Assembly (NCBI GenBank): GCA_041649675.1 | Contig: JBAZMQ010000001.1 | Location: forward strand, 64,792-128,791 | DNA from: Patescibacteria group bacterium | Lineage (GTDB): Bacteria > Patescibacteriota > Patescibacteriia > Buchananbacterales > UBA6539 | DNA length: 64,000 nt | Reading direction: 5' to 3' | In this document: positions 17,610 to 50,761 of the stretch, piece after piece | Position numbering within the stretch: the stretch's first letter is position 1 | How the letters are laid out: every line of letters starts with the position of its first letter | The notes under the pieces: generated by a model | What the model saw: the letters and a program-made list of their open reading frames with translations, nothing else | The model's database searches: none | Told to the model about the DNA's origin: nothing | Translations under genes and position numbers: made by a program

Positions 17610-17657
17610 CCTGGTTAAGGGATACCCTAAACGATGGGATCTATGTCCTTAACCAGG
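17610..17657. repeat. Inverted repeat CCTGGTTAAGGGA...TCCTTAACCAGG (13-bp arms, ~23-bp spacer)
   Basis: Located between the divergent membrane gene and gajA. Confidence 0.6.
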
Positions 17658-17810
17658 ATTTTCAGCCATGCCCCACAAATGCAAGGTTTAGGCTGGTTTG
17701 ATTGTACCCATTAATATTAATCTTTTTGCTAAATTTTGTAAATATTCGCTTGATTTTTGGCGTAAAAGGAGCTAATGTAAATTTAAAGCTATAAAAAATA
17801 ACCAATAAAT

Positions 17811-31423: not shown

Positions 31424-32209
31424 ATGATTGAAGTAAAAAATTTAAGCAAAAAATTTGGTAATTTCACGGCAGTTGATAATATCTCATTTAACGTTAATAA
31501 AGGAGATATTTTTGCTTTTTTGGGTCCAAACGGGGCAGGCAAAACCACCACTATTAAAATGCTTACCACGTTGCTTTTGCCAACCAGTGGCCAGATTCTA
31601 ATTAACGGTCATGATCCGGTTAAAGATCAAAATGCCGTACGCCATTCTTTTGGCATAGTTTTTCAAGACCCGAGTTTGGATGACGAGCTAACAACTTGGG
31701 AAAATATGGAATTTCACGGGGTTTTATACAATGTACCCAAGAAAATCAGACGAAAGAGAATTGAAGAAATGTTGAAATTTGTTGAACTTTGGGACCGCAA
31801 GGACGAACTAGTCAAGAGATTTTCCGGCGGGATGAAGCGACGCTTGGAAATTGCCAGGGGCTTAATCCATCACCCGGCAATTTTATTTTTAGACGAACCG
31901 ACTTTAGGGTTAGATCCGCAAACCAGAAATCATATTTGGAATTATATTAAGGAATTGAATAAGACAGAAGGCATGACGGTATTTTTTACGACTCATTATA
32001 TGGAAGAAGCTGACAAGTCAGCCGGCCAAGTAGCAATTATTGATCACGGTAAAATTATTGCTCTGGGTAGTCCAAATCAGCTAAAGGAAAAAACTAAAAA
32101 ACCATCGCTGGAAGATGCATTTTTGGATTTGACCGGCAAAAGTATTCGGACCGAAGAGGTATCAACTCAAGATCGGATGAGAGTAAACCAAAAAATTTGG
32201 AGGAGATAA
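31424..32209 (+). CDS. ABC transporter ATP-binding protein (ABC-2 type)
   Basis: Walker A GPNGAGKTT, signature FSGGMKRRL, Walker B ILFLDEPT. Confidence 0.85.
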   Translation: MIEVKNLSKKFGNFTAVDNISFNVNKGDIFAFLGPNGAGKTTTIKMLTTLLLPTSGQILINGHDPVKDQNAVRHSFGIVFQDPSLDDELTTWENMEFHGVLYNVPKKIRRKRIEEMLKFVELWDRKDELVKRFSGGMKRRLEIARGLIHHPAILFLDEPTLGLDPQTRNHIWNYIKELNKTEGMTVFFTTHYMEEADKSAGQVAIIDHGKIIALGSPNQLKEKTKKPSLEDAFLDLTGKSIRTEEVSTQDRMRVNQKIWRR

Positions 32210-32213
32210 TTAT

Positions 32214-32960
32214 ATGAATACAATATATATTCTTTGGTTAAGACAACTTAAAAGATATTTTCGATCAAAAGCCAGAATGATTGGATCGCTTGGCCAGCCG
32301 CTTTTATTTTTATTAGCTTTGGGATTTGGTTTTGGACCAATTTATCAAAAAGCCGGGCAGGGGAGTTATTTGCAGTTTATTGGTCCGGGCGTAATTGCCA
32401 TGGCAATAATTTTTACGGCAATTTTTATGGGGATTGAAATAATTTGGGACCGGCAGTTTGGCTTTTTAAAAGAAACTTTGGTCGCGCCAGCTTCCCGGTT
32501 TGAAATTATGATTGGCCGAACTTTGGGTGGCGCTACGGTGGCTGGTTTGCAGGGGGTAATTGTTTTTTTATTGACTTTGGTTGTTGGTTTTCGCCCAATC
32601 AGTTTGGCCTTGCTGCCTTTGGCGTTGGTTTTTGTAATTTTGATTGCTTTGGTTTTTACCGCTTTTGGCACGGCCATTGCCACTCAGCTGCAAGACATGC
32701 AAGCCTTTCCAATCATTATGAATTTTTTAATCATGCCGATATTTTTCTTGTCCGGAGCCTTATTTCCAATTGAAGGTTTTCCCGAACCAGTGGTAGCCGT
32801 AATGCGGCTTAACCCTTTGCTTTATGGCGTTGATGGTCTTCGCGGGGCGCTGATTAACGGAGCCCATATTGGTTTAGTAACTGATTTTTCAATTTTAGCC
32901 GTTATTACTGTCCTTCTTTTAGGTCTTGGTGCTTATCTTTTTTCAAAAATTCAGGTCTAG
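32214..32960 (+). CDS. ABC-2 family transporter permease
   Basis: 6 TM; adjacent to the ABC ATPase. Confidence 0.65.
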   Translation: MNTIYILWLRQLKRYFRSKARMIGSLGQPLLFLLALGFGFGPIYQKAGQGSYLQFIGPGVIAMAIIFTAIFMGIEIIWDRQFGFLKETLVAPASRFEIMIGRTLGGATVAGLQGVIVFLLTLVVGFRPISLALLPLALVFVILIALVFTAFGTAIATQLQDMQAFPIIMNFLIMPIFFLSGALFPIEGFPEPVVAVMRLNPLLYGVDGLRGALINGAHIGLVTDFSILAVITVLLLGLGAYLFSKIQV

Positions 32961-33178: not shown

Positions 33179-33298
33179 GGACCGACACCAAAATCGGTTT
33201 TTTTGTGATGTTGTAATGTGTTAGTCATAGGCTTCAATATTAGGTTGGGGCTTTGGTTTAAAATTGGCAGATCTCAAATAAAGGAAAGGTATTGTGCC

Positions 33299-36200: not shown

Positions 36201-36841
36201 TTTCGCCATACGGTGATCCGGAAGGTCGGGTGGACTTCGCGGTTACGTCGATTGACCCGGAGCTGTTTGACATCGTCGTTGATGTTTGGGCTGATGGCTT
36301 GGCTGAAGAGTCCTGGGGATTTGGTTGGCGCGCGAAGCCGAGCTTTGATATGCCAATCACCCAAATCGATTCCAGTAACCAAGGAACCGTGGATATCACT
36401 ACGGGTCCGGGTGATGTTTCTGCCACCGCGGTAAGCATTACCTTGAGATGGAAAACCGATTTCTTCCCGCCTTTGTATGGCCAAGTCGGTATTGATGGCT
36501 CTGATCCTTCCGGGCCGTTTATCCCTGGTGCAGTCGTTCAGAAGTTGATTTGTCTGGACCTGGACGGAAGCGGCACGTTTACCGGACCAGCCTACACCTT
36601 GACCATGGACGTTGTCGGCCAAGGTACGGTTGAACCCGGTTATGGTGATCACCATTATCCGGAAGTTATTCCCGCGGGTCAATTTGGTACCAATATCCTG
36701 GTTCGGGCAATACCTGACCCTGGATGGTATTTATTACGCTGGGAAGGTGCAACAGCGAGTGAAACGGATCTAACCTCCGTTGCGCTCGTTAATGAGCCAA
36801 CTCAAACGATAAGAGCGGTGTTTGCGGAGGAGACACCGTAA
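33299..36841 (+). CDS. Giant secreted/lipoprotein surface protein with repeated Ig-like (DUF5011-type) domains and a (GE)n acidic linker
   Basis: Start taken at the internal Met with lipobox LLGVGC (ORF track 33218). Repeats of the type P.ITLLGDNP..V......DPG.T..D..DG.L (DUF5011-like). Strongly GC-rich relative to the genome, giving many antisense phantom ORFs. Confidence 0.55.
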   Translation: MKNRVLLTLLVLAVVLLGVGCPNSEPEFSVPRYDAAGNYLGTMALSSLDVVQDPQVVLNPPDNQIILTAKNFALERAYGEFTIWVSKEYPEVELSLQLFGPKKAEEAEKNLSHEQLAALSIFANAIGMGQHFSSWTDFIQVRNGTVTATIPFPELVVRMTVIRLESASATNSDAAFVFSNPLPFDEGEGEEGEGEGEIEGQNEGEGGTEGEIEGETPDNCGGGVATISVTFKPNVALFNLTSPTPATSVIEFDVAGMIGANLAAASYVIGADTLVYGPKDLQPIVNCSAKLLVCDNQNDANQIASIIVIYDKTKVPTPAGGLPSLGQLSGEVKRLTVAYTTSKSITIDKAPGIDDADGIVCGSVSGAIPAGAKVAVRTKINGNWKPFPPFVEVVNGKWCHNIYVATGDNRYSEIEAWLMAADADFPWTDAKADDVPLATTVYKRVPSISITSFPRPGTGDPEIVRVDTIVSDASKYKCVIEALTIVDGHQQWVIQLTSGQPLLSLDAFSQAAGTVSTYRVLKYWAWLVEYPLPGAIPQCTDIGIDCLGETPPSVPGWVAWNWVGLNPAIDTTPPVITLLGDNPAIVDVFTPWVDPGVTITDPDDGDLTANLVVTGAVNTSVLGTYMVHYNVSDASGNPATEVIRTVVVVDRGFPVITLPVSSPQSWDVGVTYVASVATVTDNYDTGLTAQVVVSVDTTKPGSGSVTYTAIDSSGNTTTVILVVNVVDNTPPVIEPIADITMHQWDFQTVQLTATDNIPTGLVWKSVVSSDPLLELDFTQDGLVRLYTHDVAGVATVTVTLADASGLETIAIFQVTVCECQGPLIEVLQSPSYGTWDNLLVKVTCYNPNDLVLFTQVSVPSDLEAILPPKPAGPWWPKDNWGLAGLKVIDPITKEANIQVATGGFDNTANAISVAAVQAVVNGVPLAASDLPPGNDLQQAYIGIEPFQIRGTLNSLFIDKTPKIVPLFVSPYGDPEGRVDFAVTSIDPELFDIVVDVWADGLAEESWGFGWRAKPSFDMPITQIDSSNQGTVDITTGPGDVSATAVSITLRWKTDFFPPLYGQVGIDGSDPSGPFIPGAVVQKLICLDLDGSGTFTGPAYTLTMDVVGQGTVEPGYGDHHYPEVIPAGQFGTNILVRAIPDPGWYLLRWEGATASETDLTSVALVNEPTQTIRAVFAEETP

Positions 36842-36982: not shown

Positions 36983-38821
36983 ATGAAACAGCGCAAAAAG
37001 GACAAAAAAATAAAATACGTTGACTTGCGCCAGATTGATACTGATCATGATGGTCTTTCTGATTATGACGAAATCAATGTCTATGGCAGTGATCCAAATA
37101 ATTCCGATACGGATAATGATGGAATTGATGACGGTGATGATGTTAAGCAGGGTTTCAATCCTCGGACGGAAAATATAAAAAATCTTTTTATACCTAGACG
37201 GAGCAATAAATATCAGCCGCAGATTTTAAGACCAAAGCGTTTGGTTTTTTATAGTTTCAGCGCGGTTTTAATGAAATTGATTATTATTGCTTTTGTTTTT
37301 TTCGTTCCCATTACCGCTTTTTTAACGCCAGATATTTTAAGCCAGGAAAGTAAAAAAGTAATTGAATTGACAAATAAAATTCGGGCGTCGTTATCAATTT
37401 CTATTTTGAAAGAAAATAGCACTTTGGACCAGGCAGCAATTAATAAAGCTCAAGATATGTTATTGCAGCAGTATTTTGCTCATGTCGGCCCAGATAAAAA
37501 GAATTTAACAGATTGGTTAAGTTTAGTCGGTTACAGCTATGACATTGCTGGTGAAAATTTAGCCTTGGGTTTTGCTAATGCTTCTGATGTGGTTAATGCT
37601 TGGGCTAAAAGTAAAACTCACTATGCCAATATGATTGATCCGGATTTTTCGGAAGTCGGGGTGGGCATGGTTAGCGGTACTTACACTGGCCATGATACGA
37701 CCTTGGCCGCTCAATATTTTGGTGCGCCAAGAGCCAGCGCGCAAAATAATACCGTGACTAAAGCCACTGCTACTCCAAGTCCGGCCCCAAAACCGGCAAC
37801 TCCAGTGGCAGTTAAACCAGCGTCAACTACTCAGCCAGCTTCAGTAGTAACCAAGACTGAGGGGGATAAGAAAGTTGCTTTAGCAAAAATTGATAATACA
37901 CCAAAAAAATTGATTCCCACTCCGGTTGTGGCAGTTGCCCCAAAACCTCAAGGAGTAGTAGTGGCTGCGCCAACGGTTGCCACCTCTACGTCGGCGGTGG
38001 TAGAAAAGAAAATAGCTTTGGCTGTTCCGGTTTTGATAACGCCAGCTAATAACGCCTTAGTTAATCAAAAAGAAGTTCAGTTAGAAATTTCGGCCCAGCA
38101 GGCGCAAAAAGTTTTGGTTTATAATAATTCCTTAGAAATTGCAGCCAGCAATGCTTTAAATAATGGAATTATTAATTTGGCCGTTCAATTAAACGAAGGT
38201 GAAAATAAAATTAATATTAAATCTTTTCGCGGCTTGGAATTTAAGGTCTCGCCCCAATACAACATTAGCGTTGATACGGTTTTGCCGTCAGTTGATATAG
38301 AAAAAAGCAAAGTGATAGTTTCTGAGCCAACAGTTGGTGATGAAAGAGTGGTAAAAGTAACAGCCTATGTTAGCTCGGATGTAAAAAAAGCTTATGCTAC
38401 CCTGGCTGATTATAAAATTGATTTACAGCTGACTAAAGATGATTTAGGAAAAGATGTTTGGAGCGGGCAAACGATTATATTTAATTACAGTGATAGCAAA
38501 CTTTTTAATACAGTAGTTTTACCAAATATCACGATTGAAGATCAGGCGGGTAATATTTCTACTTATGATATCTCTTGGGATAAAATTATACCAGTTAATC
38601 CATCTCTTTTAAAACAATACTTTTTTATCAAAGACTACCCCTTAAGTAAAAATGTTAATCTATTATTTGATATTTCAGGTTGGTTTTATAAATTTATTTT
38701 GACCGTAGCAATTATTTCTTTGCTACTTAACATATTCATTCAAATTAGACGGCAGTATCCTAGAGTTATACTTTCAACCTTGGGTTTTATCTTGCTGTTA
38801 GGTATTTTAATAGTCGTTTAA
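36983..38821 (+). CDS. Surface protein with N-terminal Asp-rich Ca-binding-like repeats, a CAP/SCP (PR-1-like) domain, a Pro/Ala/Thr-rich linker and a C-terminal TM anchor
   Basis: DTDHDGLSDYDE / DTDNDGIDDGDD repeats; the CAP domain segment HYANMIDPDFSEVGVGMV. Confidence 0.55.
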   Translation: MKQRKKDKKIKYVDLRQIDTDHDGLSDYDEINVYGSDPNNSDTDNDGIDDGDDVKQGFNPRTENIKNLFIPRRSNKYQPQILRPKRLVFYSFSAVLMKLIIIAFVFFVPITAFLTPDILSQESKKVIELTNKIRASLSISILKENSTLDQAAINKAQDMLLQQYFAHVGPDKKNLTDWLSLVGYSYDIAGENLALGFANASDVVNAWAKSKTHYANMIDPDFSEVGVGMVSGTYTGHDTTLAAQYFGAPRASAQNNTVTKATATPSPAPKPATPVAVKPASTTQPASVVTKTEGDKKVALAKIDNTPKKLIPTPVVAVAPKPQGVVVAAPTVATSTSAVVEKKIALAVPVLITPANNALVNQKEVQLEISAQQAQKVLVYNNSLEIAASNALNNGIINLAVQLNEGENKINIKSFRGLEFKVSPQYNISVDTVLPSVDIEKSKVIVSEPTVGDERVVKVTAYVSSDVKKAYATLADYKIDLQLTKDDLGKDVWSGQTIIFNYSDSKLFNTVVLPNITIEDQAGNISTYDISWDKIIPVNPSLLKQYFFIKDYPLSKNVNLLFDISGWFYKFILTVAIISLLLNIFIQIRRQYPRVILSTLGFILLLGILIVV

Positions 38822-39040
38822 ATTTCAATAAGGGGAGGGGAAAATGCATTCAGCTAAAACTCATACTTTTAAATATTAGTCCCAGCTTTTATGGCTGGGT
38901 TTTTAGATAAATTGTTAGTCTTGACTTTTTCGTTAATTAATGATAGAGTATAATGATTTAATAAAGTAAATAATTTTGCTTTATTAAGCTAAAATTTTAT
39001 TATATTCAAGCTATATTTAATTTAAATTTATATTAATTTT

Positions 39041-39994
39041 ATGGCAAAACTGATTTCAATTATTATTCCGGTTTATAACGAACAAGATAATATTTTTTTA
39101 ATTTATCAAGCGTTGGTTGAGCAGTTCAAAAAATTAGGTAGTCAGTATGATTACGAAATTATTTTTGTGAATGACGGCAGTACGGATAAGAGTTTGGAGC
39201 AGATTAATCAATTGTCGCAAAGGGACTTAAAAATAAAGTATTTGGAATTTTCCCGTAATTTTGGTAAAGAGTTTGCCACCAGCGCTGGTTTAAAGTATTG
39301 TCTTGGCGGTGCCGCTATTCTGATTGATGCTGATTTGCAGCACCCGCCAGAAATTTTGTCACAATTTATTACTAGGTGGCAGGCTGGGGCAGACATGGTC
39401 ATCGGAGTTAGAAAAAAATACCAAAGCGCTAATTTATTTAAGCGTTTAACCTCAAGCTTATTTTACCGGATCATGAATTTTATTAGTGGCACTAAAATTA
39501 CGGCTAAAGCGACTGATTATCGTTTAATTGATCGTAAGGTAATTGATGAATTTAATCGTTTGACCGAGCATAACCGAATCACTCGGGGGTTGTTGGATTG
39601 GCTGGGCTTTAAAAGGGATTATGTTTATTTTACCGCCGGCAAAAGGATTAATGGTAAAATTTCTTATAACAAAGTTAAGCTTTTCAAGCTGGCGGTATCA
39701 GCTTTAGTTACCCATAGTTTATTGCCACTAAAAGTTGCTGGCTATCTGGGGCTGATTATTATTGTATTTTCCGGGCCACTGGGATTTTTCATTTTTATTG
39801 ATAAATACATGATCAATGATCCCTTTGGTTTTGCTTTTTCCGGACCAGCAATTTTGGCAGTTATTAATTTGTTTTTAGTTGGAATTACTCTAAGTTGTTT
39901 GGGGTTGATTGCTTTGTATATTGGTAATATTCAAACCGAAGTGATGAATCGGCCACTTTATATTATTAGGGATAAAAAGAACATCACTAAATAA
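39041..39994 (+). CDS. GT2 polyprenyl-phosphate glycosyltransferase (GtrB/ArnC/DPM1-like, C-terminal TM helices)
   Basis: IIIPVYNEQDNI, DGSTD and DADLQHPPE motifs plus two C-terminal TM segments. Confidence 0.8.
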   Translation: MAKLISIIIPVYNEQDNIFLIYQALVEQFKKLGSQYDYEIIFVNDGSTDKSLEQINQLSQRDLKIKYLEFSRNFGKEFATSAGLKYCLGGAAILIDADLQHPPEILSQFITRWQAGADMVIGVRKKYQSANLFKRLTSSLFYRIMNFISGTKITAKATDYRLIDRKVIDEFNRLTEHNRITRGLLDWLGFKRDYVYFTAGKRINGKISYNKVKLFKLAVSALVTHSLLPLKVAGYLGLIIIVFSGPLGFFIFIDKYMINDPFGFAFSGPAILAVINLFLVGITLSCLGLIALYIGNIQTEVMNRPLYIIRDKKNITK

Positions 39995-40833
39995 TGAATG
40001 AACAATCCTTAAAACCTAAAGTTTCCGTTCTCCTGACTGCCTATAACAATCAGGCTTATATCAAACAAGCAATTGAAAGTATTTTAAATCAAACATTTTC
40101 TGAATTTGAATTTATTATTATTGACGACGCTTCAACTGACAACACTTGGGCAATAATCAGTGACTATGCCGCAAAAGATTTGCGAATCAGGATATACAAA
40201 AACGGTTTGAACTTAGGTATAAGTAAAAATCGAAATAGGCTTATTAGTTTGGCTCGAGGTGAATATATTGTTTGGCAAGATGCCGATGATATTTCTTTGC
40301 CCAACCGTTTAGCCAATCAAGTTAGCTTTATGCAGAGCCAGCCTGAAGTTGCTATCAGTGGTGGTTACCTTCAATTTTTTAATGAAACTCAAGGTAATTT
40401 AAGCATCAGAAAATATGCTGTTGCTGATAAGGAGCTACGGGCAAAAATTTTTCGTTATTCGCCCCTAGCTCAACCCTCAGCAATTGTTCGCAAAGACGCC
40501 TTGGTAAAAATTGGTGGCTATGATGAAACTTTAGCCGTAGCCGAAGATTTGGATGTTGTTTTTCGGATTGGCCAAGATTATAAATTTGCTAATCTAGCCC
40601 AAGTCCTAGTTTTGTATCGTCAGCAATCACAGTCAATCACTTTCAAAAAACTTAAAATTTTGGAATTAAATACTCTGAAAATTAGGTTTCATTTCGTGAG
40701 GAATAAAAGCTATAAGCCTAATTTTTTTGATATTTTGTACAATTTGGGCCAATTTTTAACGCTTTATTTATTGCCGGCCAAATTCAGAGTTAAAATTTTT
40801 GATCGTTTCAGGAATCAAAAAATTTATGGATAA
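39994..40833 (+). CDS. Glycosyltransferase family 2
   Basis: VSVLLTAYNNQAYIKQAIESILNQTF, DDASTD and a DxD motif. Confidence 0.8.
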   Translation: MNEQSLKPKVSVLLTAYNNQAYIKQAIESILNQTFSEFEFIIIDDASTDNTWAIISDYAAKDLRIRIYKNGLNLGISKNRNRLISLARGEYIVWQDADDISLPNRLANQVSFMQSQPEVAISGGYLQFFNETQGNLSIRKYAVADKELRAKIFRYSPLAQPSAIVRKDALVKIGGYDETLAVAEDLDVVFRIGQDYKFANLAQVLVLYRQQSQSITFKKLKILELNTLKIRFHFVRNKSYKPNFFDILYNLGQFLTLYLLPAKFRVKIFDRFRNQKIYG

Positions 40834-41659
40834 AATTTTGCCAAAAATTTCAGTTATCATGCCGTTTTATAATGCTAAAGATTTTTTGGCCCAAGCGGTT
40901 GAAAGCATTTTGAACCAGACCTTTGCCGATTTTGAGCTGATAATTATCAATGACGCTTCAACTGATAACTCCGAGCAAATTATTCAGCCATTTTTAGCCG
41001 ACAAAAGGATTGTTTACGTAAAAAATGATAAAAATCAGGGTATTGTTAATAATTTAAATTATGGTTTAAAAATTGCTAAAGCGGAAATCATTGCTCGGAT
41101 GGACGGCGATGATGTTTCTTTACCCACTCGGCTAGAGGAACAATTTCAGTTTTTATTGGAAAATCATAATATTGCCGCGGTTGGGTCATTTGTCAAAATT
41201 ATTGATGAAAATAGCCAAGAAATTGATCAGCGGACAAAACCAATTGATCCCCAAGTTATAAAAAATAATTTAATAATTTATTCACCACTGGTTCATCCGG
41301 CCACCATGTTTCGTAAATCAATCATTTTGCAGGTTGGGGGATATAGAAATCAGTATTTATATGTTGAAGACATTGATTTATGGTATCGGCTTGTTTATTC
41401 TGGATTTAAAATTTCCAATGTTAGTAAATTTTTATTGGGCTATCGTTATCACAAAAACTCTACGGCCAATCAGGCAAAAGCCAATGCTAAGAGAGCCTTC
41501 AAATTAAGAATGGAAACTATTAAACGGTTCAGATTAAAGATAAGTTTTAAACAGTATTTATTAATTTATGCTCAGTTAATCGCCGGACTTATTCTTTCTG
41601 GTCGCCAGCGGCAACACTTAGAAGGCATATACAAAAAGATTGTTTATCATGATAAATAG
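40826..41659 (+). CDS. Glycosyltransferase family 2
   Basis: ISVIMPFYNAKDFLAQAVESILNQTF, NDASTD. Start taken at the internal Met MDKIL (ORF track 40799). Confidence 0.8.
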   Translation: MDKILPKISVIMPFYNAKDFLAQAVESILNQTFADFELIIINDASTDNSEQIIQPFLADKRIVYVKNDKNQGIVNNLNYGLKIAKAEIIARMDGDDVSLPTRLEEQFQFLLENHNIAAVGSFVKIIDENSQEIDQRTKPIDPQVIKNNLIIYSPLVHPATMFRKSIILQVGGYRNQYLYVEDIDLWYRLVYSGFKISNVSKFLLGYRYHKNSTANQAKANAKRAFKLRMETIKRFRLKISFKQYLLIYAQLIAGLILSGRQRQHLEGIYKKIVYHDK

Positions 41660-44072
41660 AAAACAAAATTTTATTTTTCGCAACTGGCATTGGCTGGTAT
41701 TTTTATTTTTGGCTTTTATCTGCCTTGCCTTTTTGCTATTTCAGCGAGGCATTTGGGCTTTTGCCGATAGCGGTTTTTATTACCAAAATATTTTAGAAGC
41801 CAAAAAAATTGCTTTTGCCAAACTGGGACAATTTGCCAATACTGATGGTTTTTATTTGGGGTTTGATAACTCAGCTCAAAGTTTTTCCCATTTAATTATT
41901 TCTTTTTATCAAGTTTTTTTAACCTCAATTTTTGGTTCTGACTTAGGCCAAATAATTTATTATTTTGTTTATTATTTCCTCTGTTTTTATTTTGGTCAAA
42001 AATTATTGAAGAAATTATTTTTTGAGCTAAAACCAAACCAGATCAGGCTCGGGGCTTTGTTTTTGACTTTTAATCCTTTTTCGCTTTTGCTTACCACTTT
42101 ATTTACCATTAGCTATATCTATCCATTATTTATTATCTTTTTTTATGCTTTATTAAACTACCTGGATAAGGGTAAAACTTTGAATCTGCTCTTGGCGGTA
42201 TTTTGCAGTCTTTATCTGTTTTCTTATTTACGTTTAATTCCGATTGTTGGTTTAACTTTTTTATTCCTGGTTTGGATATTTTACGACCGAATTAATTTTA
42301 ATTTAAAACGGCTTTTGATTTTGGCTATTGTTGTATTTTTATGTATTAGCCCGTTTCTGGTTGGCAATTTTCAATTCTTTGGTAATTCAAGCGATGTAGT
42401 GAGCAATTACAAAGATTCGTTTAGCAAATATCAACCGGCCAATTATAATTTTAAACAGTCTTTTGTCAATTCTTTAACTAATCCTGGCGGTTTTACCCCT
42501 TCAGCTCTCAGTTTTTTTTATAATAATCGGGGTATTCCTGGGTTTGCCGATAATTACGCGCAAAATAATACTTTTGAATTTTATAAATTTATTCAATTGC
42601 TGTTTAACGTTTTGTTGTTAATTGCAGTTTTGTTCTTTTTGAAAGACAGAAGGAGTCTAAAAATTTTTATTACCCTTTGTTTTGTATTATTTTTAAATAC
42701 CTTGGGTAATTTTTTTAGCTTAGATTTTTTTAATGAAGCTAATAAAACGGTTTTAATTTTTTTGTATAACGACTATGGCTTTTTACAATTTGTTCAAAGT
42801 TTTTTATTAGCCTTTCTTCTAGTAATTTTGTTTCACTCTTTCCAAAAAAAATCAATTAATCATTATTTCAATGGCTTGATTTATTTTATAGTCATTAGCT
42901 ATTTAGTTATCAATGCTTTGCCATTTTTGAGTAATCATTATGGTTTTAAAAAGATTAATTATATTCCCAATGATTACAAACAAGAACTTTTTACCGACAC
43001 TGACTATGATTTTTCTGAGGCAACAATTTTTGCGCCTTATCATTGGCTGCACTTTAAATGGTCGCCATACTTTTTAGATTTGAATACGGCTACTTACTCA
43101 AAGTACAAAAGTTTATTGGTTCCTAATCTAAGATTTATTAATGGTGATTTAGCTAAATTTTACAACCAAATCTATAATAATTTTGACAAGGATCAATTTC
43201 AAAATCTAGCCATTTTTAATGTCAAAAGTATTTTTGTCTTCAATGATGTTTTAGATGCCAATAAAAATATTGATACTTATGAAGTTATTAATATTGAAAA
43301 TGCTGCCAAAAATCTTGAGCTGGCGCTTAGAAGTCGCAGTGATGTTTACCTGGCCAATGATTATTCAAATTTTAGTCATTTTAGATTTAACAGTGCTGAT
43401 GATTATGACTTTTTTATTTATTCGCCTAAAAAATTATTTAATCTAAATTTTGATAATTTTTATAATACAAAATTAGATTTATCCGTTCGGCCCCTGGTTT
43501 TTAATCAATCAAATTTCAATGTGGTAAATTTAATTGACGAAGGTGTTTGGTTAAACAACAGTCCAACAATTGATATTAAGGCATTTAGCAACAATCCAAA
43601 CAAGTACTATCTAAAATTGACTAACTTAAATAAAAATTTGCCGTTCTTGGTCCAATTTAACCAAATGTTTTCGCCGGCCTGGCGAGTCTATTTTACCGAT
43701 CAAAAAGAATGGGATAGTCAAAATTGTCAATCGGGATTTAAAACTTTCAAGCTGACTGGCAATAGCCGTTGCTTGGTTGACGGTTTGGCCGCAGATTATG
43801 ATGATTTAAAATTAATTAATAAAAAATATCTAAAACCCCAGAATCATTTTGTCGGCAATTTGGTTGGCAATGCCTTCCTTTTTGAACCCCAAGATATTAG
43901 CAGCCAAACTAATAAAACCGGCGAAATTTATTTGGTTATTTATTTTCAAAAGCAACTCTATTATCTTATTTGTTTAACCATTTCTGGCTTAACATTTTTC
44001 GTCTTAATTGTTTTGAGTTTATTTCAAGTTTTTAGACAAAAGAAAATCGGTAAACATTATGAAAAGAAATAA
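41640..44072 (+). CDS. Large polytopic membrane protein (about 13 TM plus a large C-terminal extracytoplasmic domain), GT-C-fold glycosyltransferase-like
   Basis: Topology only; sits in the glycosylation locus downstream of a GtrB-like gene. Confidence 0.4.
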   Translation: MFIMINRKQNFIFRNWHWLVFLFLAFICLAFLLFQRGIWAFADSGFYYQNILEAKKIAFAKLGQFANTDGFYLGFDNSAQSFSHLIISFYQVFLTSIFGSDLGQIIYYFVYYFLCFYFGQKLLKKLFFELKPNQIRLGALFLTFNPFSLLLTTLFTISYIYPLFIIFFYALLNYLDKGKTLNLLLAVFCSLYLFSYLRLIPIVGLTFLFLVWIFYDRINFNLKRLLILAIVVFLCISPFLVGNFQFFGNSSDVVSNYKDSFSKYQPANYNFKQSFVNSLTNPGGFTPSALSFFYNNRGIPGFADNYAQNNTFEFYKFIQLLFNVLLLIAVLFFLKDRRSLKIFITLCFVLFLNTLGNFFSLDFFNEANKTVLIFLYNDYGFLQFVQSFLLAFLLVILFHSFQKKSINHYFNGLIYFIVISYLVINALPFLSNHYGFKKINYIPNDYKQELFTDTDYDFSEATIFAPYHWLHFKWSPYFLDLNTATYSKYKSLLVPNLRFINGDLAKFYNQIYNNFDKDQFQNLAIFNVKSIFVFNDVLDANKNIDTYEVINIENAAKNLELALRSRSDVYLANDYSNFSHFRFNSADDYDFFIYSPKKLFNLNFDNFYNTKLDLSVRPLVFNQSNFNVVNLIDEGVWLNNSPTIDIKAFSNNPNKYYLKLTNLNKNLPFLVQFNQMFSPAWRVYFTDQKEWDSQNCQSGFKTFKLTGNSRCLVDGLAADYDDLKLINKKYLKPQNHFVGNLVGNAFLFEPQDISSQTNKTGEIYLVIYFQKQLYYLICLTISGLTFFVLIVLSLFQVFRQKKIGKHYEKK

Positions 44073-46248
44073 ACGAAAAATTTATTTTAAATTAGTAATT
44101 GCTTTATTGGTGCTTACTTTTTTGGCGTACCTAGTTTTTTTATTGGCCGCTAAACAAATAAATTTTTCCGATCAGGCTTATGTTGCTAGAAATATTTCCC
44201 TAGTTTTTACCGACCAAAATGTATCAGCCCAAGAGCCAAAATTGGATTTTTTAATTGCTGATTTAAAAAATATCAGCAAAACCGTTTCAAATTCAGTGGT
44301 GGTTCAAGTCAATCCCTTTGACCAAAGTAAACTGATCAATCTTTTATTGTCACAGGCTAATAATATTTATATAGACATATTTACTAATAAAATTGCCAAT
44401 AATCTAAGCCAAGCAACTTTTACCAATAAATTTAATATTACTTTGCCCTTTGAAGTAAGGTCTTATTTAACAAAAGATAATGACCTTAAAATTATTTACA
44501 ACAGGGAAACTAGGTTAGTTAAATTAATTTTGGCTGGACAAAATTTTCAGATTAATGATTCAATTCTTAAGCTTAATGATTTGACGGTTTTTCAGATTGA
44601 TAATATTGATCGTGATTCTATCATCCAGATTGGCGATTTATTTATAGATTTAAGCAGCTACAAAAATAATTTAGCAACATCAATTGCCAACTTGCTTAAT
44701 GGCAATGTTAAAAATTACAAAGTTGATAGCCTTAATTTATTGGCTAAAAATAATTTTTCTTTTGAAACTGGCGCTTGGACTAGCCAAGTAGCTGATTGTA
44801 GCGCTTACCTCGGCGGACAGCCAGCAATTAATATGTCACTGGAGAATGATGCGACGAATGGCAAAAAATCACTGGCCCTGACTGCGCAAAATCATTTTGC
44901 CTGCAGCTATTTTACTTTTCCTGTTAATTTAAATAAAAATAAAATTTACAAACTTTCTTTTGATTACAAAACCTTGAAGGGTAATAAGATTCAGTATTAT
45001 TATAATCTAAAAAATACTGTTAATTTAGTGCAGGAAAAATTTGGCTCAATAAAAACTCTTGATAGCAGCTGGCATAATTTGGTAACTTTTATCAAACCAG
45101 AAATTGATTTGGCCAATCGCTTCAGCCTTTATTTTTATGCACCATCTGATGGTTCAGAGACTTTAACTGATTTGTATGACAATGTTGCCCTTGATTCCTA
45201 TGGGTTGGTAAAAGAAATTCCGGTTTCTGGCTTAAACTTTCCTAAGAATTACGGCTTGGCAAATTGGTTAGTTTTAGCGCCTGGCCAAAATAGTCTTAGC
45301 TATCTAAGCTTAAGCACAAATCTATTAAACAATTTTAATTATTCATTTGAGCAAGGTTTTTGGACAAAACAAGTTCAGGATTGCAGTAATTATTTGCCCG
45401 GGCAGGCGAGTATTGGCATGTCTCTAAAAAATAATGGTACGAATGGCAAAAAATCACTAGCTCTGGCTTCACAAAATCATTTTGCCTGCAGCTATTTTAC
45501 TTTTCCTGTCAGCCTGCAGCGCGACAAGCTTTACGTACTCTCATTTGATTATAAGACTGTAGCTGGCAACAAGATTCAATATTACTATAATTTGCAAAAT
45601 GATTTATGGCAGCAGCAAGAAAAATTTGAATCAGTTGAAAGCTCAAATGACAGCTGGAATAAGTTTGAAACCATAATTAATCCTCAAATTGAAAACAGCA
45701 ATAGTTTCAGTCTTTATTTTTATGCGCCGTCTGACGGTTCAAAAACTTTGATTAATCAATATGATAATGTGAGACTGCAAGAGTTTGCCCCAAAAGAAAT
45801 TTATTCCTACTATTTGTATGCTCAACAAAACCTGGCCAAGCCTTTTAGCTTAAAGTCAATTGAGACAATCCAGCTTAACCGTTGGCAAAGCCGAATTAAG
45901 TTAACTGCGGCCAAAGGTTCGCTACTGCTAGTTTGGCCGCCGGCATATAATTTGAGCGCCAAGCTTTATCTTGTTCAAAATCAACAGGCTAATTGGTTAA
46001 ATCAGTTGGCTAATCTAACTAAACAATCAATTAATGACAATCTGCATTTTCAGGTTCAAACTGACAGTAATGGTTGGTTGCTAAATATTGATTCTTTGTG
46101 CCAAAACTCAAAGGTTTGCCAGAAAAATTTAGACGGAACTTACGATGTTTCTTTGCTAGTGCAAAATGATTTTTATAAGTTTAGCTATTTATTTTTTTGG
46201 CTCACGCTAACAATTTTAGTTCTGGCCGCAATTTATTTTAATTTATGA
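44059..46248 (+). CDS. Membrane-anchored protein with two tandem carbohydrate-binding-module-like domains (CBM4/9/22-like)
   Basis: Two ~150-aa repeats (FSFETGAWTSQVADCSAYLGGQ... / YSFEQGFWTKQVQDCSNYLPGQ...) with stretches of near-identical DNA. Confidence 0.45.
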   Translation: MKRNKRKIYFKLVIALLVLTFLAYLVFLLAAKQINFSDQAYVARNISLVFTDQNVSAQEPKLDFLIADLKNISKTVSNSVVVQVNPFDQSKLINLLLSQANNIYIDIFTNKIANNLSQATFTNKFNITLPFEVRSYLTKDNDLKIIYNRETRLVKLILAGQNFQINDSILKLNDLTVFQIDNIDRDSIIQIGDLFIDLSSYKNNLATSIANLLNGNVKNYKVDSLNLLAKNNFSFETGAWTSQVADCSAYLGGQPAINMSLENDATNGKKSLALTAQNHFACSYFTFPVNLNKNKIYKLSFDYKTLKGNKIQYYYNLKNTVNLVQEKFGSIKTLDSSWHNLVTFIKPEIDLANRFSLYFYAPSDGSETLTDLYDNVALDSYGLVKEIPVSGLNFPKNYGLANWLVLAPGQNSLSYLSLSTNLLNNFNYSFEQGFWTKQVQDCSNYLPGQASIGMSLKNNGTNGKKSLALASQNHFACSYFTFPVSLQRDKLYVLSFDYKTVAGNKIQYYYNLQNDLWQQQEKFESVESSNDSWNKFETIINPQIENSNSFSLYFYAPSDGSKTLINQYDNVRLQEFAPKEIYSYYLYAQQNLAKPFSLKSIETIQLNRWQSRIKLTAAKGSLLLVWPPAYNLSAKLYLVQNQQANWLNQLANLTKQSINDNLHFQVQTDSNGWLLNIDSLCQNSKVCQKNLDGTYDVSLLVQNDFYKFSYLFFWLTLTILVLAAIYFNL

Positions 46249-47096
46249 TAAAAACAGTGGAAAAAATAATTGATACTTTAGTCAGCGGCTTGGTAAAGTC
46301 TAAAAAAGATATTTTAAGTCGCAAGTGGTTTTTGTTTCTGGTTTTGGCTTTATTCATTGTTTTGTTTCTCAGTTTCGGCTTTGATTTAGCCTTGGTTTTG
46401 GTGTTGATTTTGATTTTTTGGTTTTACCAATGGGATAGCAGAATTTTACTTTTTCCCGCTGGGATTTTTTTGGCGGTTGGTTTGATTTCTATGGTTTATC
46501 AACAAGACGATTTAGCCCGTTTGGCGGCTAGCTATATTTATTACTTCTTTTTGGCAGTTGGTGTTTTACAAATTCAAAAATTGAAAGAGCCTAGAGAAAA
46601 ATTTTTGAAGGCAAACGATCAGATTGACGATTTATTAATTCCCTTGGCCAATCAAGCCAATTTAGCCAAAAGAACTAAAAAAATGTTTTGGTCTTACAAC
46701 CAAGATGGTCTGCTAATCTCCGGGGTAAATATTTTAATAATTTGCGGCTATTTGCTATTTTTTGGCGCTAATTGGCCAAACCAACAAAACTATTATCAAT
46801 TTATCGTACTATTGTTAATCCTTTTGATTGTCAATTCGTATCTTTTCTTTGAAAAGCAGGATAGTAAAACCAAATGGTTAAGCAAAAAAGCAATATTGAA
46901 ATTTTTTGAAAATAGAAACAATGTTTTATTACTTTTGATTAATGTTTCAATTATCAGTATCTATCTGTTGTTATTTGGTTTTACCTGGCCCAGAAGCGGC
47001 AATTATGGCCGCTTTTTGGGTTTGGGTTTTTTCTTGCTAGTGATTAATGTTATTGCCCTTTTGGATATTTCCAATGAAGATAAAAAATATGATTAA
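46245..47096 (+). CDS. Integral membrane protein, unknown
   Basis: Multiple TM segments. Confidence 0.4.
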   Translation: MIKTVEKIIDTLVSGLVKSKKDILSRKWFLFLVLALFIVLFLSFGFDLALVLVLILIFWFYQWDSRILLFPAGIFLAVGLISMVYQQDDLARLAASYIYYFFLAVGVLQIQKLKEPREKFLKANDQIDDLLIPLANQANLAKRTKKMFWSYNQDGLLISGVNILIICGYLLFFGANWPNQQNYYQFIVLLLILLIVNSYLFFEKQDSKTKWLSKKAILKFFENRNNVLLLLINVSIISIYLLLFGFTWPRSGNYGRFLGLGFFLLVINVIALLDISNEDKKYD

Positions 47097-48771
47097 AACA
47101 ATAAAAGAAAACAGCTTAGCAATTTTGTTTTTCTTTATCGCTGCGGCTTTGATAATCTGGCAGCTGTTTTTACCCGGTTACGTTTTAACTTTGGATATGG
47201 TTTTTACGCCAAAAATAAAAATATTTTTGGCTAGTGGTGAGTTTTATAATAGCCTACCTTTTAAGTATTTGTTGGCCGCTGTCAATTATTTATTGCCCGG
47301 CTGGGTTATCCAAAAAATTGTTTTTCTTTCATTATTTTTTTCAATTGGCTATTTGGCTTATTATTATTTACCGCTGCCAAAAAAGAATTTTGCTCCGTAC
47401 TGGGCTGGCCTGTTTTTTTTGGCCAATCCTTTTGTCTATGAAAGATTTTTGGCCGGAAATTGGCTGTTACTTTTTGGTTATGCCGGCTTGCCATTTTTTA
47501 TCTATTATTTGCTGAAATTTTTTCAGCAGCCAAATTGGCCAAATAGTCTTGGGCTAGTTTTTAGCTTACTGCTAATTGGGCTTTTTTCTTTGCATCTGTT
47601 TACCATGGCAATCATTTTATTTTTTGGTTTGACAATTTATAAATTAATCAAAGCCGGGGTGGCTAAAAAAATTGATTTGGTCAAAAAAATATTTGTAAAA
47701 CTATTAATTGTTGGCATCTTAACTTTTTTGTTTAGTAGTTACTGGTTAGTACCATATTTTTTAAACGCCCAACAGTCAGTTATTAATAATTTTAATCAAG
47801 AACAATGGACAGTATTTAAAACGGCAACAAATTCCAGTTTAGGAACGACCTTAAATGTTTTGAGCCTTTACGGTTATTGGGGGGAAAACCAACCCTGGGC
47901 AAATTATTTTTTGTGGCCAAGGGCCAATTTTATTCCTTGGTTAATAATTGCAATCTTACTTTTTTGCCTGGTAGTTATCGGTTTTTGCCAAGGGCGAAAA
48001 AGTAAAAACAGGGAAGTCACTGTCATTTTTTTGGTTGTTGGTTTGATGGGTTTTATTTTTTCCTGTGGGCTTAGCGATACTATTTTTAAAAGTTTAAATT
48101 TATGGCTTTTTAAACATATCTGGTTTTGGCAAGGATTCCGTGATAGTCAAAAATGGACCGCTTTTTTAGTTTTAAGTTACGTATTTTTTGGCGCCCTGGG
48201 GGTTGATGCCATCTTAGATTTTGCAAAAAGAAAAATAAAACCAGCGGTAAAAATTATTTTGATTATATTGTTTACCATTCCGGTTTTATACACTTATACA
48301 ATTTGGGGCGGCTTTGGCCGGCAGCTACAGCCAGTTTGGTATCCCAATAGTTGGTCTGAGGTGAACAAAATTTTAAATCAGGATCGGGCCGGGGATTATC
48401 AGGTCTTGTTTTTACCCTGGCATCAATATTTATCTTTTAAATTTAATCAGTATTTAATCATTCAAAATCCGGCTAAAGATTATTTTGATCAACCAATAAT
48501 TCAAGGAGAAAATATGGAATTAGGCGGCGTTTGGGGTCAGGGCCAAAATTTATTAGTTCAAAAAATTGAAGACATTTTAAGGCAAAGCAGTGATGAATCT
48601 CAGCCGGAAACACTAAGAAAGCTGGCTTTGGAGGGGGTAAAGTACATTATTGTAAGCCATGACTTAGAAGGAATGAAACAGGCCATTAATTTTATTCCTG
48701 TTGAGTCAGCTGAACTAAGGCAAGTTTTTGATGCTGAGGACTTGACTTTGTATCAAATTATGTTAAGATAA
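47047..48771 (+). CDS. Polytopic membrane protein (about 12 TM plus C-terminal domain), second GT-C-like candidate
   Basis: Topology only; alternative starts at 47074 or 47089. Confidence 0.4.
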   Translation: MLLPFWIFPMKIKNMIKTIKENSLAILFFFIAAALIIWQLFLPGYVLTLDMVFTPKIKIFLASGEFYNSLPFKYLLAAVNYLLPGWVIQKIVFLSLFFSIGYLAYYYLPLPKKNFAPYWAGLFFLANPFVYERFLAGNWLLLFGYAGLPFFIYYLLKFFQQPNWPNSLGLVFSLLLIGLFSLHLFTMAIILFFGLTIYKLIKAGVAKKIDLVKKIFVKLLIVGILTFLFSSYWLVPYFLNAQQSVINNFNQEQWTVFKTATNSSLGTTLNVLSLYGYWGENQPWANYFLWPRANFIPWLIIAILLFCLVVIGFCQGRKSKNREVTVIFLVVGLMGFIFSCGLSDTIFKSLNLWLFKHIWFWQGFRDSQKWTAFLVLSYVFFGALGVDAILDFAKRKIKPAVKIILIILFTIPVLYTYTIWGGFGRQLQPVWYPNSWSEVNKILNQDRAGDYQVLFLPWHQYLSFKFNQYLIIQNPAKDYFDQPIIQGENMELGGVWGQGQNLLVQKIEDILRQSSDESQPETLRKLALEGVKYIIVSHDLEGMKQAINFIPVESAELRQVFDAEDLTLYQIMLR

Positions 48772-48846
48772 TAAACTAATTTAGACTATTAATAAATTGG
48801 CTTGAATTCCTAAGAAATGAGCTAAATCATTGATTTCTTTATCTTT

Positions 48847-50643
48847 ATGTTTAAAATTATTAAAAAAGCAAAAACTAATATTATTTTGAGTATCTGTGCT
48901 ATCGTCTGTATTGTTTATCTTTCAGGCCATTTAGGCTTAGGGCAATTTTTACGCAATCACTTAGCTTTTGGCTATGGTGGTGGCGGCGGGGCTGTGATTC
49001 TGCCAGAGATTGTTGCTATCAACAAACCTCTATATATTCCAACCGAATTTCGTGGTGGCAGGCAGTTTAGACAGCTTGATGGCGTGTCGGTTACCCTGGA
49101 AGTTCCACCATTAGTGACTTCTGGCTATACCATGTTTGATACCGAAATTACTTCAGTTAACTCCAGTAACAGGCCTTGTGTTGAAGGAAACTTTGTGTTG
49201 GCCGATAAAGTATTTACCATTATTGCTAATGATGTTGACGGACACGAGGTCACCAGTTTTCCTCGCGGCTTAACTGTTTCTCTAACTCTGGCTAATTTAC
49301 CAGCCGATACGTCTAACGTTGGTATCTATTATTTGAATAATAACAGCCAGTGGGTTTTAGGCCAAAAAGCCATTTTTGATAATGTTAACAATCGGACATC
49401 ATTTCAAATTAAAGACTTGGGCGTGATTGCCTTAATCAATGCCCCGGGCTTACCCCGGGTAATTGAAGCCGGTAGTCAATGTTCAGTTAGGCCTCAAGTT
49501 TTGGGTATTAAGCAATATTCTGAAGGCACGCCGCTAAGAACTTGTGACGGTGAAACCTATATAGTTTCAGGGACAAAAATTATTAAGCAAGTAAAAAAAC
49601 CGCCTTTAACGGCAAAAACCTTTGAAGGCAAAACAATTTATGATGTTGACTTTTCCGTGATTGTTGAGCTCAGCGGCCAAAGGTATGATGGCAAAAATTA
49701 TAAGAATGGCGATCTTTTAAGGACTTGCGATTGGAAAATTTACCGAGTGGAAAATCAAAAATTACGTCATATTGGCACCTGGCAAGAATTACATGAAAAA
49801 TATGAAGGTCAAAAAATTAATAACGTTGACTATTGGGTAATTGCCGATTATCAACAATTACCGGTTTTAAGTCCTAGTCAGCAAGTTTTGGGGGTTAAAC
49901 AGTATGCTGACGGTTCGTTGATTAGGACCAGTGACGGCCGAATTTATATTATTGAAAATCAATCAGCCAGATACATTAGCAGTCTTGATGAGCTTAAAAA
50001 GTATGCAAATCAAAAAATTTATAATGTTACAAGTGATGTTGTAATCCAATACAACCAGCCGAATGTTGAATATAATTCAAATAAGGTATTGGGAGTTAAA
50101 TTTTATGCTGATGGTACATACTTAAGAACTCGGGACTGGAAGGTGTACGTAGTGGAAAATCAAAAAGCCCGGCAAGTGGCCACCATGATTGCTGGTTCTC
50201 AGGATTACTATTTGGGCCAAAAAATCTATGATGTTGATTATGGCGTTATTGCTCAATATACAACTCAGCAATCTTCAGTCGCTACTCAACAGGTCTTGGG
50301 GGCAAAAAGTTATGCCAACGGTACACTTTTGAGAACTGCCGACGGTAAAGTTTACATCGTGGATAATCAAAAAATTAGACCGGCTGATCAAGCTGATTTA
50401 CAAAATCGGGGTAACAGCAAATTATATGATGTCAATTACGATACGATTACTAATTATGGTGGACAGTCAGTTTTAGGGGTTAAGCTTTATGCCGATGGCA
50501 CTTATCTTAAAACCCCAGATTGGCGCTTATATGTAATTGAAAACCAAAAGGCAAGATATATTGATACGATTGCTGCCAGTCAAATATCATATAATGGCCA
50601 ACCGGTGTATAACGTTGATTACGGAGTTTTGACACAGTATTAA
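48847..50643 (+). CDS. Secreted repeat protein with about 7-8 tandem ~55-aa repeats (VLGVKxYADGTLLRTxDGKVYVVENQKARxI)
   Basis: N-terminal TM/signal; repeats are visible directly in the translation; family not recognised. Confidence 0.5.
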   Translation: MFKIIKKAKTNIILSICAIVCIVYLSGHLGLGQFLRNHLAFGYGGGGGAVILPEIVAINKPLYIPTEFRGGRQFRQLDGVSVTLEVPPLVTSGYTMFDTEITSVNSSNRPCVEGNFVLADKVFTIIANDVDGHEVTSFPRGLTVSLTLANLPADTSNVGIYYLNNNSQWVLGQKAIFDNVNNRTSFQIKDLGVIALINAPGLPRVIEAGSQCSVRPQVLGIKQYSEGTPLRTCDGETYIVSGTKIIKQVKKPPLTAKTFEGKTIYDVDFSVIVELSGQRYDGKNYKNGDLLRTCDWKIYRVENQKLRHIGTWQELHEKYEGQKINNVDYWVIADYQQLPVLSPSQQVLGVKQYADGSLIRTSDGRIYIIENQSARYISSLDELKKYANQKIYNVTSDVVIQYNQPNVEYNSNKVLGVKFYADGTYLRTRDWKVYVVENQKARQVATMIAGSQDYYLGQKIYDVDYGVIAQYTTQQSSVATQQVLGAKSYANGTLLRTADGKVYIVDNQKIRPADQADLQNRGNSKLYDVNYDTITNYGGQSVLGVKLYADGTYLKTPDWRLYVIENQKARYIDTIAASQISYNGQPVYNVDYGVLTQY

Positions 50644-50761
50644 ACTTTTAGATAGTAAAATGACGTCACTCTAACCGGTGACGTCATTTTTTGTTTTTAA
50701 CATTGAATTTTTTATAGAAAAATGCTATAATTAAGTTATAACTATTAAAAATGTTTTTGTT

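Follow-up and report, generated by a model that had tools for sequence, protein, structure and literature searches.

The window analysed here is a 64-kb stretch from a low-GC metagenome-assembled genome (MAG) of Patescibacteria (Candidate Phyla Radiation, CPR), with a G+C content of about 33-38%. At positions 39041-50643 it carries a cluster of eight genes, which probably form an operon through which a Buchananbacteria-like cell glycosylates a cell-envelope glycan outside the cytoplasm, by way of a lipid-linked sugar. The cluster encodes a GtrB-type polyprenyl-phosphate sugar synthase (gene 1), two soluble family 2 glycosyltransferases (GT2; genes 2 and 3), two polytopic membrane proteins of the glycosyltransferase C (GT-C) fold (the 810-aa protein, GT-C 1, and the 574-aa protein, GT-C 2), a 729-aa protein with duplicated carbohydrate-binding modules (CBMs), a small polytopic membrane protein of 283 aa and a 598-aa repeat protein (Table 1). 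The proteins of the operon are identical to NCBI entries WC508_00555 to WC508_00575, all annotated as hypothetical proteins, and their nearest relatives belong to Candidatus Buchananbacteria.

Fold and lineage of the two polytopic proteins

The GT-C fold was found for both polytopic proteins by two structure-comparison methods. For the 574-aa protein (560 aa from M15), a model built on 57 aligned sequences had a predicted local distance difference test score (pLDDT) of 93.1 and a predicted template modelling score (pTM) of 0.93, and for the 810-aa protein a model built on 17 sequences had a pLDDT of 77.3 and a pTM of 0.80, the transmembrane (TM) core and most of the outer domain being confident. 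In structure, AftD matches the 810-aa protein best, over 596 aligned residues, and ranks second for the 574-aa protein, whose top matches, AftA and AftD, are glycan-acceptor enzymes. The first-pass annotation of this DNA had called the products of 41640-44072 and 47047-48771 GT-C-like, and the GT-C core carried by both models upholds that call. The fold was detected by structure comparison alone: PDB sequence searches with the single proteins and with the profile of the 574-aa family found no GT-C, and Pfam and NCBIfam scans of the 810-aa protein gave no match.

Assuming that the positively charged N-terminus is inside, 11 TM helices were counted, which puts four parts of the chain on the outer face: the first loop, the long loop that follows TM7, the loop that follows TM9 and the C-terminal domain. 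The C-terminal soluble domains are about 340 aa in the 810-aa protein and about 155 aa in the 574-aa protein. In the 810-aa protein the 11-TM core is followed by an alpha/beta and beta-sandwich outer domain and a C-terminal TM anchor, a layout that resembles AftD minus its CBMs; the chain re-enters the membrane by one further helix, as AftD does at TM12. In the 574-aa protein the 11-TM core leads into a C-terminal outer domain of the alpha/beta type. Neither protein contains WWDxG or a similar motif, and neither matches the STT3 or PMT Pfam families. An identity of the two GT-Cs as oligosaccharyltransferases (OST, GT66) was rejected on the missing motif and the missing STT3 match.

The sequence relationships of the two proteins point to the same lineage. 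Against NCBIfam NF053599, 'MmpA family trehalose lipid delivery protein', the 574-aa protein scored 178.8 bits (E 1.7e-52; cutoff 210), with its residues 31-571 aligned to profile positions 7-497 of 543, and it is thereby an MmpA homologue, not an equivalog. The 810-aa and 574-aa families are distant paralogues (hhalign, prob 94, E 1.4e-7, 359 columns). In other CPR genomes the position of the 810-aa gene is occupied by genes for long fusion proteins of 950-1350 aa, the N-terminal domain of which was aligned by hhalign both to the 810-aa family (prob 99.4, E 8e-22) and to the 574-aa family (prob 100, E 1e-40). One of these long fusions (L013:4286-8176) passes Pfam PF11847, GT-C_AftD (80.3 bits; cutoff 26), and also carries CBM_4_9; PF11847 gave no match to the 810-aa and 574-aa proteins at E <= 0.1. 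The two polytopic proteins had been put forward as candidates for a new GT-C family. The GT-C part of that suggestion stands, and the claim of novelty is too strong, because the 574-aa protein aligns to MmpA and both proteins are related through hhalign to CPR proteins of the GT-C_AftD family. To place both in a divergent, unannotated branch of the AftD/MmpA GT-C lineage is the accurate description.

The 810-aa family, the 574-aa family and the long fusions have in common an Asp six residues after a Gly just past TM1, which is invariant and corresponds to D36 of the 574-aa protein and D40 of the 810-aa protein. They also share the motifs N-P-F, FRDSQK or its equivalent, LPWHQY / APYHW and an IKYII..D strand, and more invariant polar residues lie in the outer loops of both GT-C families. 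The conserved LPWHQY / APYHW occupies the position of WWDxG at the start of the outer domain. In AftD, the outer-cavity residues K39, D41, E251, K361 and D474 are essential, and D36 and D40 may be equivalent to D41, an equation made by position only and not by a residue-level structural alignment. MmpA (NCgl2761/Rv0226c) was reported to be homologous to the first 11 TM helices of AftD, and the paper that named it proposed a membrane-anchor or scaffold role (PMC8698533). According to a 2026 preprint, Foldseek suggests that MmpA may be a glycosyltransferase; the same preprint describes mmpA and aftD of Mycobacteriales in one conserved locus with putative glycosyltransferases, which also includes tmaT and mtrP.

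Partner genes and their conservation

Gene 1 encodes a GT2/GT-A domain (PF00535, E 1.4e-32) with a DAD motif at residue 96 and two TM helices, both C-terminal (235-253 and 271-289). In the PDB search, Synechocystis GtrB sll0501 (5EKP) aligned to it over the full length (residues 5-311, E 8e-68), which bears out the earlier GtrB/DPM1-like call; ArnC (E 2.5e-30) and, more weakly, the archaeal Dol-P-Man synthase also aligned over the full length. The best NCBIfam match was PgfS at 222 bits, below the equivalog cutoff, and ArnC scored 117 bits, likewise below its cutoff. By class, the product is a polyprenyl-phosphate glycosyltransferase with a sugar specificity that is not readable from sequence. 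The products of genes 2 and 3 are EpsE/TuaG-like (NCBIfam, below cutoffs), carry DxD motifs and match the haloarchaeal AglG model weakly. Their PF00535 matches and the lack of TM helices confirm two cytoplasmic GT2s.

The 729-aa protein has TM anchors at its N- and C-termini, between which lie two duplicated modules (aa 224-387, nt 44728-45219, and aa 419-581, nt 45313-45801) that are 62% identical (E 2e-68). CBM_4_9 was matched by 16 of the 30 homologous modules (best E 2.2e-10), so that the previous description as a tandem-CBM protein is supported at the level of the family. In addition, the window's module scored 27.4 against PF22637 (cutoff 27), and the PDB profile matches of the modules, all of them weak, were all to CBMs. 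Among the long CPR proteins of 950-1350 aa, one or two CBM modules follow the GT-C domain in a single chain with a C-terminal TM helix, and those of L012 (31.5 bits) and L022 (32.1 bits) pass PF02018. The 729-aa protein ends in a segment of ~130 aa, made up of a beta-sandwich and a TM helix, that is homologous to the C-terminus of the 810-aa protein (prob 95.9, E 5.7e-9). Most simply, an AftD-type protein would have been split in the Buchananbacteria-like lineage, giving one subunit with the GT-C and one with the CBMs. The acceptor had been predicted to be an S-layer, a pilin or a wall glycopolymer; the CBM modules fused to GT-C in other genomes suggest a glycan, and this retains the last of the three while arguing against an S-layer protein or pilin.

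The gene for the 283-aa protein was left out of the first-pass gene list for 39041-48771, which was thus incomplete. Its product matched no Pfam or NCBIfam family, and the GtrA and Wzx models did not match it either. Its N-terminal ~125 aa form a conserved 3-TM module. About 45 loci encode this module directly upstream of the 574-aa homologue or as part of the same chain; several Parcubacteria have it joined to the homologue's N-terminus, giving proteins of roughly 720-790 aa. Such fusions are seen in L011, L013 and L014 (about 792 aa) and in P0020, P0031 and P0038. N-terminally extended 574-aa homologues of about 720-760 aa occur in L051, L059 and L071, and an 884-aa form occurs in L075.

The 598-aa protein contains five repeat copies by motif, of ~60-69 aa, starting at aa 224, 353, 420, 489 and 548. 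It had been described as a protein with 55-aa repeats. Amino-acid repeats are indeed present, and the starts at aa 353, 420, 489 and 548 are 59-69 aa apart instead of 55. No tandem repeat was found at the DNA level in the gene except a trivial 16-nt repeat. The protein has no Pfam, NCBIfam or PDB relative, and its family is narrow, with about 20 full-length homologues, in close relatives only. Most loci with the GT-C core lack the gene, which is co-transcribed here according to the terminator evidence. The earlier suggestion that this protein is the acceptor found no support in any test; the protein is limited to close relatives, though its gene lies within the terminator-bounded unit. The ~60-69-aa repeat also recurs as a short segment in otherwise different CPR surface proteins (P0296-P0304), and several repeat-bearing CPR proteins carry precomputed Pfam domains that are putatively Ig-like. 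The repeat, which belongs to no assigned family, may be a reusable surface or wall-association module, as its distribution suggests.

The 574-aa family is widespread. In a library of 1.84 billion proteins, it comprised 5,680 cluster representatives (50% identity) at E <= 1e-3 and 1,185 at E <= 1e-30, nearly all of them labelled 'hypothetical'; the 810-aa family is narrow, with 19 database matches. A pattern-seeded scan with one genome per species gave 80 loci, essentially all from Patescibacteria lineages (Paceibacterota, Magasanikbacteria, Moranbacteria, Gracilibacteria, Saccharimonadales and WWE3 among them) or unclassified MAGs. One Saccharimonadales locus with the cluster is L081. The patterns were derived from a CPR alignment, so these 80 loci do not delimit the range of the family.

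The locus is not a chance arrangement, because related genomes repeat its gene order. In close relatives the order is Ig-like surface protein, CAP protein, GtrB-like enzyme, GT2, GT2, and the 810-, 729-, 283-, 574- and 598-aa proteins. A common arrangement in more distant genomes, shared by about half of the eight loci that were looked at closely, begins with a Wzx-like protein, a GtrB-like enzyme, a family 4 glycosyltransferase (GT4), a GT2 and another enzyme, and continues with a long GT-C-CBM fusion, a small membrane protein, the 574-aa homologue, a small secreted protein and a CAP protein. In L003 the small secreted protein, encoded immediately downstream of the 574-aa homologue, is a PG_binding_1 protein. 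For the 48 loci in which 9 kb or more of sequence precedes the 574-aa homologue, the neighbours encoded in the 10.5 kb upstream of it were counted; the most frequent was a GT2 (31/48), followed by a CBM module (27/48), a GtrB-like enzyme (25/48), a GT4 (21/48), a second GT-C (20/48) and a Wzx-like protein (18/48).

Proposed pathway and alternative explanations

On the proposed pathway, the GtrB-type enzyme would move a sugar from a nucleotide sugar onto polyprenyl phosphate at the inner face of the membrane, and the lipid-sugar would then be flipped outward, perhaps by a flippase encoded outside the window. At the outer face, the two paralogous AftD/MmpA-type GT-Cs would transfer the sugar to the acceptor, an activity suggested by their fold and conserved residues. 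The most likely acceptor is a polysaccharide that the CBM subunit would hold, because CBM modules share one polypeptide with the GT-C elsewhere, as in AftD. GT-C 1 would work with the separate two-module CBM protein, and GT-C 2 would act with the small conserved membrane subunit, the 283-aa protein. Meanwhile, the soluble GT2s probably make the backbone or a lipid-linked oligosaccharide in the cytoplasm.

The known paradigm for such a pathway combines a GT-A lipid-sugar synthase, a flippase and a GT-C, to which some systems add a separate protein for acceptor binding (PMC8035078). Like the three-component systems GtrA/B/C, CsbB/GtcA/YfhO, GacI/J/K/L and PgfS/PgfM, the operon encodes a membrane-tethered GT2 and outer-face polytopic GT-Cs. 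Gene 1, a membrane-linked GT-A enzyme, matches GtrB, ArnC and PgfS of the known synthases, the models predict polytopic GT-C-fold transferases with an extracytoplasmic active site, and a partner comparable to the separate acceptor-binding protein suggested for these systems (PMC8035078) is present. However, the operon is without a GtrA or Wzx flippase, has two GT-Cs of the AftD/MmpA lineage and not one of the YfhO or PMT_2 type, and additionally includes two soluble GT2s, a dedicated CBM subunit and a small membrane subunit.

AftD (PF11847; PDB 6W98/6WBX) resembles the window's proteins in its 11-TM GT-C core, alpha/beta outer domain, further TM helix and first-outer-loop Asp, and in the CBM beta-sandwiches associated with the enzyme. 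It differs in that the window's proteins miss the PF11847 cutoff and the CBMs are on the separate 729-aa polypeptide; the 810-aa protein is without TM13-16 or the acyl carrier protein-binding module, and does not have the single-chain architecture of AftD. The donor, too, would probably be a GtrB-made lipid-sugar and not decaprenyl-phospho-arabinose; genes of the UbiA or DprE type were not seen. MmpA has full-length homology to the 574-aa protein, both having 11 TM helices and one outer domain near the C-terminus and both being related to the N-terminus of AftD. In CPR genomes the MmpA-like and AftD-like genes lie side by side next to genes for cytoplasmic glycosyltransferases, as in the aftD/mmpA locus of Mycobacteriales. 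In contrast to MmpA, the 574-aa protein scores below the equivalog cutoff and no tmaT (acyltransferase) or mtrP (methyltransferase) neighbours were found in the operon or its flanks; in addition, the CPR host is not known to make mycolic acids, which leaves no place for the trehalose-mycolate phenotype. The GT-Cs also differ from STT3/PglB/AglB and the Haloferax Agl system, which is evident from the absence of WWDxG and of an STT3 match and from the CBM modules, which suggest a glycan acceptor. Generally, the system works like three-component glycosylation, and structurally it is a split, simplified AftD with an MmpA-like paralogue; its GT-Cs fall outside the formal definitions of PF11847, NF053599 and the OST family alike.

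Several points weigh against the proposed pathway. MmpA, which is the closest relative with a name, is not known to be catalytic. Neither a GtrA/Wzx flippase nor an initiating phosphoglycosyl transferase was found within the 64-kb window; the flippase could be encoded elsewhere in the genome. Literature searches gave no glycopolymer for these organisms, and those on CPR GT-C, DUF6541, Saccharibacteria together with AftD, and envelope glycosyltransferases of Patescibacteria returned nothing relevant. The 810-aa model is only moderately confident, some outer loops having a pLDDT <50, and neither GT-C reaches the curated Pfam or NCBIfam cutoffs. The window's own modules are borderline for CBM_4_9, the first scoring 19.6 bits (E 0.0013) against PF02018 with a cutoff of 25.9. 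Finally, a simple three-component scheme does not need two soluble GT2s.

Some of the same genes could be arranged into a pathway of protein glycosylation. PgfS, the best NCBIfam match of gene 1, is the lipid-sugar synthase of the adhesin-glycosylation system of S. mutans, the soluble GT2s match the AglG model weakly, the composition of the cluster recalls the Haloferax Agl pathway, and a phosphoglycosyl transferase is absent from every version of the cluster inspected. The GtrB-like enzyme would start a sugar or oligosaccharide linked to a lipid monophosphate, the GT2s would extend it, as in Haloferax Agl, and one GT-C or both would transfer the product to surface proteins. The candidates for such proteins are the co-transcribed 598-aa repeat protein, the gene for which is inside the terminator-bounded unit, and the upstream CAP-domain and Ig-like proteins, the genes for which are syntenic in the related genome L001. 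We consider this explanation unlikely. The GT-Cs have neither WWDxG nor a match to the STT3 and PMT families, their top structural matches (AftA and AftD for the 574-aa protein, AftD for the 810-aa protein) are glycan-acceptor enzymes, the GT-C-fused CBM modules favour a glycan acceptor by the same reasoning as given for AftD, and the 598-aa protein is missing from most loci that retain the GT-C core.

A role in a Wzx-dependent pathway, in which the 574-aa GT-C and its small partner would polymerise polyprenyl-diphosphate-linked units or attach them to peptidoglycan, seems distinctly improbable. The distant clusters do have a Wzx-like flippase, a GT4, a GT2 and a PG_binding_1 protein beside the 574-aa homologue, and OST-type GT-Cs, which use diphosphate-linked donors, provide a precedent. 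However, a GtrB-type monophosphate-sugar synthase accompanies the homologue in more than half of the loci counted and is the first gene of this operon, whereas the initiating phosphoglycosyl transferase is absent from the cluster and Wzx is absent from the window. Least probable, and very unlikely in our view, is that the GT-C-fold proteins are non-catalytic and serve as scaffolds in the membrane or in lipid delivery, the kind of role first proposed for MmpA: the scaffold proposal and the family name of the only named sequence relative are in its favour, but the first-outer-loop Asp does not vary among 57 diverged sequences, and neither do many of the polar residues that face outward, the genes are coupled to a lipid-sugar synthase and CBMs, CPR bacteria are not known to have a mycolate pathway, and the recent preprint itself raises MmpA as a possible glycosyltransferase.

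A wider conclusion can be offered tentatively, as a possibility less probable than the proposed pathway. The AftD-like and MmpA-like GT-C pair, together with the GtrB-type synthase, the CBM unit and the small subunit, might be an ancient module that Patescibacteria have conserved widely and that builds an undescribed wall-associated glycopolymer in these reduced cells, implying by homology that MmpA (Rv0226c) is a polyprenyl-phosphate-sugar-dependent glycosyltransferase and not a scaffold for lipid delivery. The pairing, if ancestral, would through its CPR context speak for MmpA as a lipid-sugar-dependent transferase. Mycobacterial MmpA (Rv0226c) is reported to be essential, and the cluster gives an outgroup context and an independent clue to its function. 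Cell envelopes of CPR/Patescibacteria are almost uncharacterised, and the literature searched contains no GT-C enzymes or wall glycopolymer from them. The logic of lipid-linked glycosylation at the outer face is already well known, so the operon extends rather than overturns knowledge; the combination of AftD/MmpA-type GT-Cs with a GtrB-type synthase yields testable biochemistry, with a lipid-sugar donor, a CBM-held glycan acceptor and two accessory subunits supported by fusions.

Transcription unit and the rest of the window

All seven open reading frames (ORFs) listed previously are present on the + strand at the positions given. The NCBI gene calls and the lengths of orthologues favour starts at 40826 (not 40799), 41649 (not 41640) and 47089 (not 47047); the longest ORF of gene 3 begins with the TTG at 40799, and its L001 orthologue is 277 aa. 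With these revised starts, the seven genes of 39041-48771 are co-directional with neighbours overlapping by 1-14 nt, and a 75-nt gap separates the 574-aa gene from the 598-aa gene. Because of the gene overlaps and the terminator-like hairpins at both ends, between which no comparable + strand hairpin occurs, 39041-50643 is taken as a single transcript, and these eight genes are the likely transcription unit (Table 1). Promoter-like sites were not enriched over shuffled sequences, so that the site upstream of gene 1 is weak evidence. A 36-aa ORF, present in L001 between the CAP gene and gene 1, was looked for in the window and not found.

Table 1. Genes and boundary signals of the probable glycosylation cluster, in window positions
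Feature	Positions	Strand	Remarks
Terminator-like hairpin	38881-38899	+	7-bp G+C-rich stem, then T run; closes the upstream CAP-domain gene; 5' boundary
Promoter-like site TTGACT-17-TAGAGT with upstream TG	38921-38949	+	Consensus scan only; within the 219-nt gap before gene 1
GtrB-type polyprenyl-phosphate sugar synthase, gene 1, 317 aa	39041-39994	+	PF00535, PDB GtrB match
Soluble GT2, gene 2, 279 aa	39994-40833	+	PF00535, E 1e-35; no TM helix
Soluble GT2, gene 3, 277 aa from ATG 40826	40826-41659	+	PF00535, E 5.5e-36; no TM helix
GT-C glycosyltransferase 1 (putative; '810-aa protein'), 807 aa from 41649	41649-44072	+	Fold comparison
Bitopic outer-face protein, 729 aa, two CBM_4_9-like modules	44059-46248	+	Duplication, family-level CBM_4_9 matches
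Polytopic membrane protein, 283 aa	46245-47096	+	N-terminal ~125-aa 3-TM module; conserved GT-C 2 partner
GT-C glycosyltransferase 2 (putative), MmpA-like ('574-aa protein'; 560 aa from M15)	47089-48771	+	Fold and NCBIfam MmpA alignment
Signal-anchored 598-aa repeat protein, last gene of the unit	48847-50643	+	Repeats
Strong terminator-like hairpin	50657-50690	+	14-bp stem and T run; 3' boundary

Upstream of the operon, a gene for a 1207-aa surface protein (33218-36841, +) encodes Bact_surface_Ig-like domains and a Gly/Glu-rich stretch; in L001, this gene and the CAP/YkwD-domain gene after it (36983-38821) keep their synteny with the glycosylation operon. A second surface-protein gene (758 aa; 21942-24218, -) also encodes Ig-like domains. 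The G+C content of the two surface-protein genes is 0.49-0.53, compared with a background of 0.33-0.38. About 6 kb upstream of the operon lies an ABC-2 transporter pair (ATPase and ABC2_membrane permease; 31424-32960, +) of a type resembling polysaccharide/teichoic-acid exporters. It was rejected as the glycan exporter of the operon, since it is not syntenic in L001.

The window also contains a small mobile/defence island. A complete Gabija anti-phage system is encoded at 17811-21616 (+), with GajA (AAA_15 and OLD-type TOPRIM) scoring 720 bits and GajB (UvrD helicase) 741 bits against the PADLOC models, and a LOOT RNA (Rfam RF03000, 93.6 bits; 17573-17694, -) lies just upstream of the Gabija genes. 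A probable integrated island at 12075-17694 adjoins a tRNA gene (12075-12146) and includes genes for an Abi_C protein (12312-13157), a large serine recombinase (13129-14553, -) and an AAA_25 protein (14698-15639, -) as well as two unassigned ORFs; an AAA_25 gene is also present just beyond the glycosylation cluster of L001. Housekeeping genes elsewhere in the window encode RF1, PrmC, HrcA, DnaK, DnaJ, FtsW/RodA, DnaX and L25. In addition, a 231-aa PG_binding_1 protein is encoded at 28509-29204 (-), and two adjacent paralogous D-lyxose-isomerase-like cupin genes are found at 3672-5318 (+; PF07385, E 3.6e-29 and 4.5e-44).

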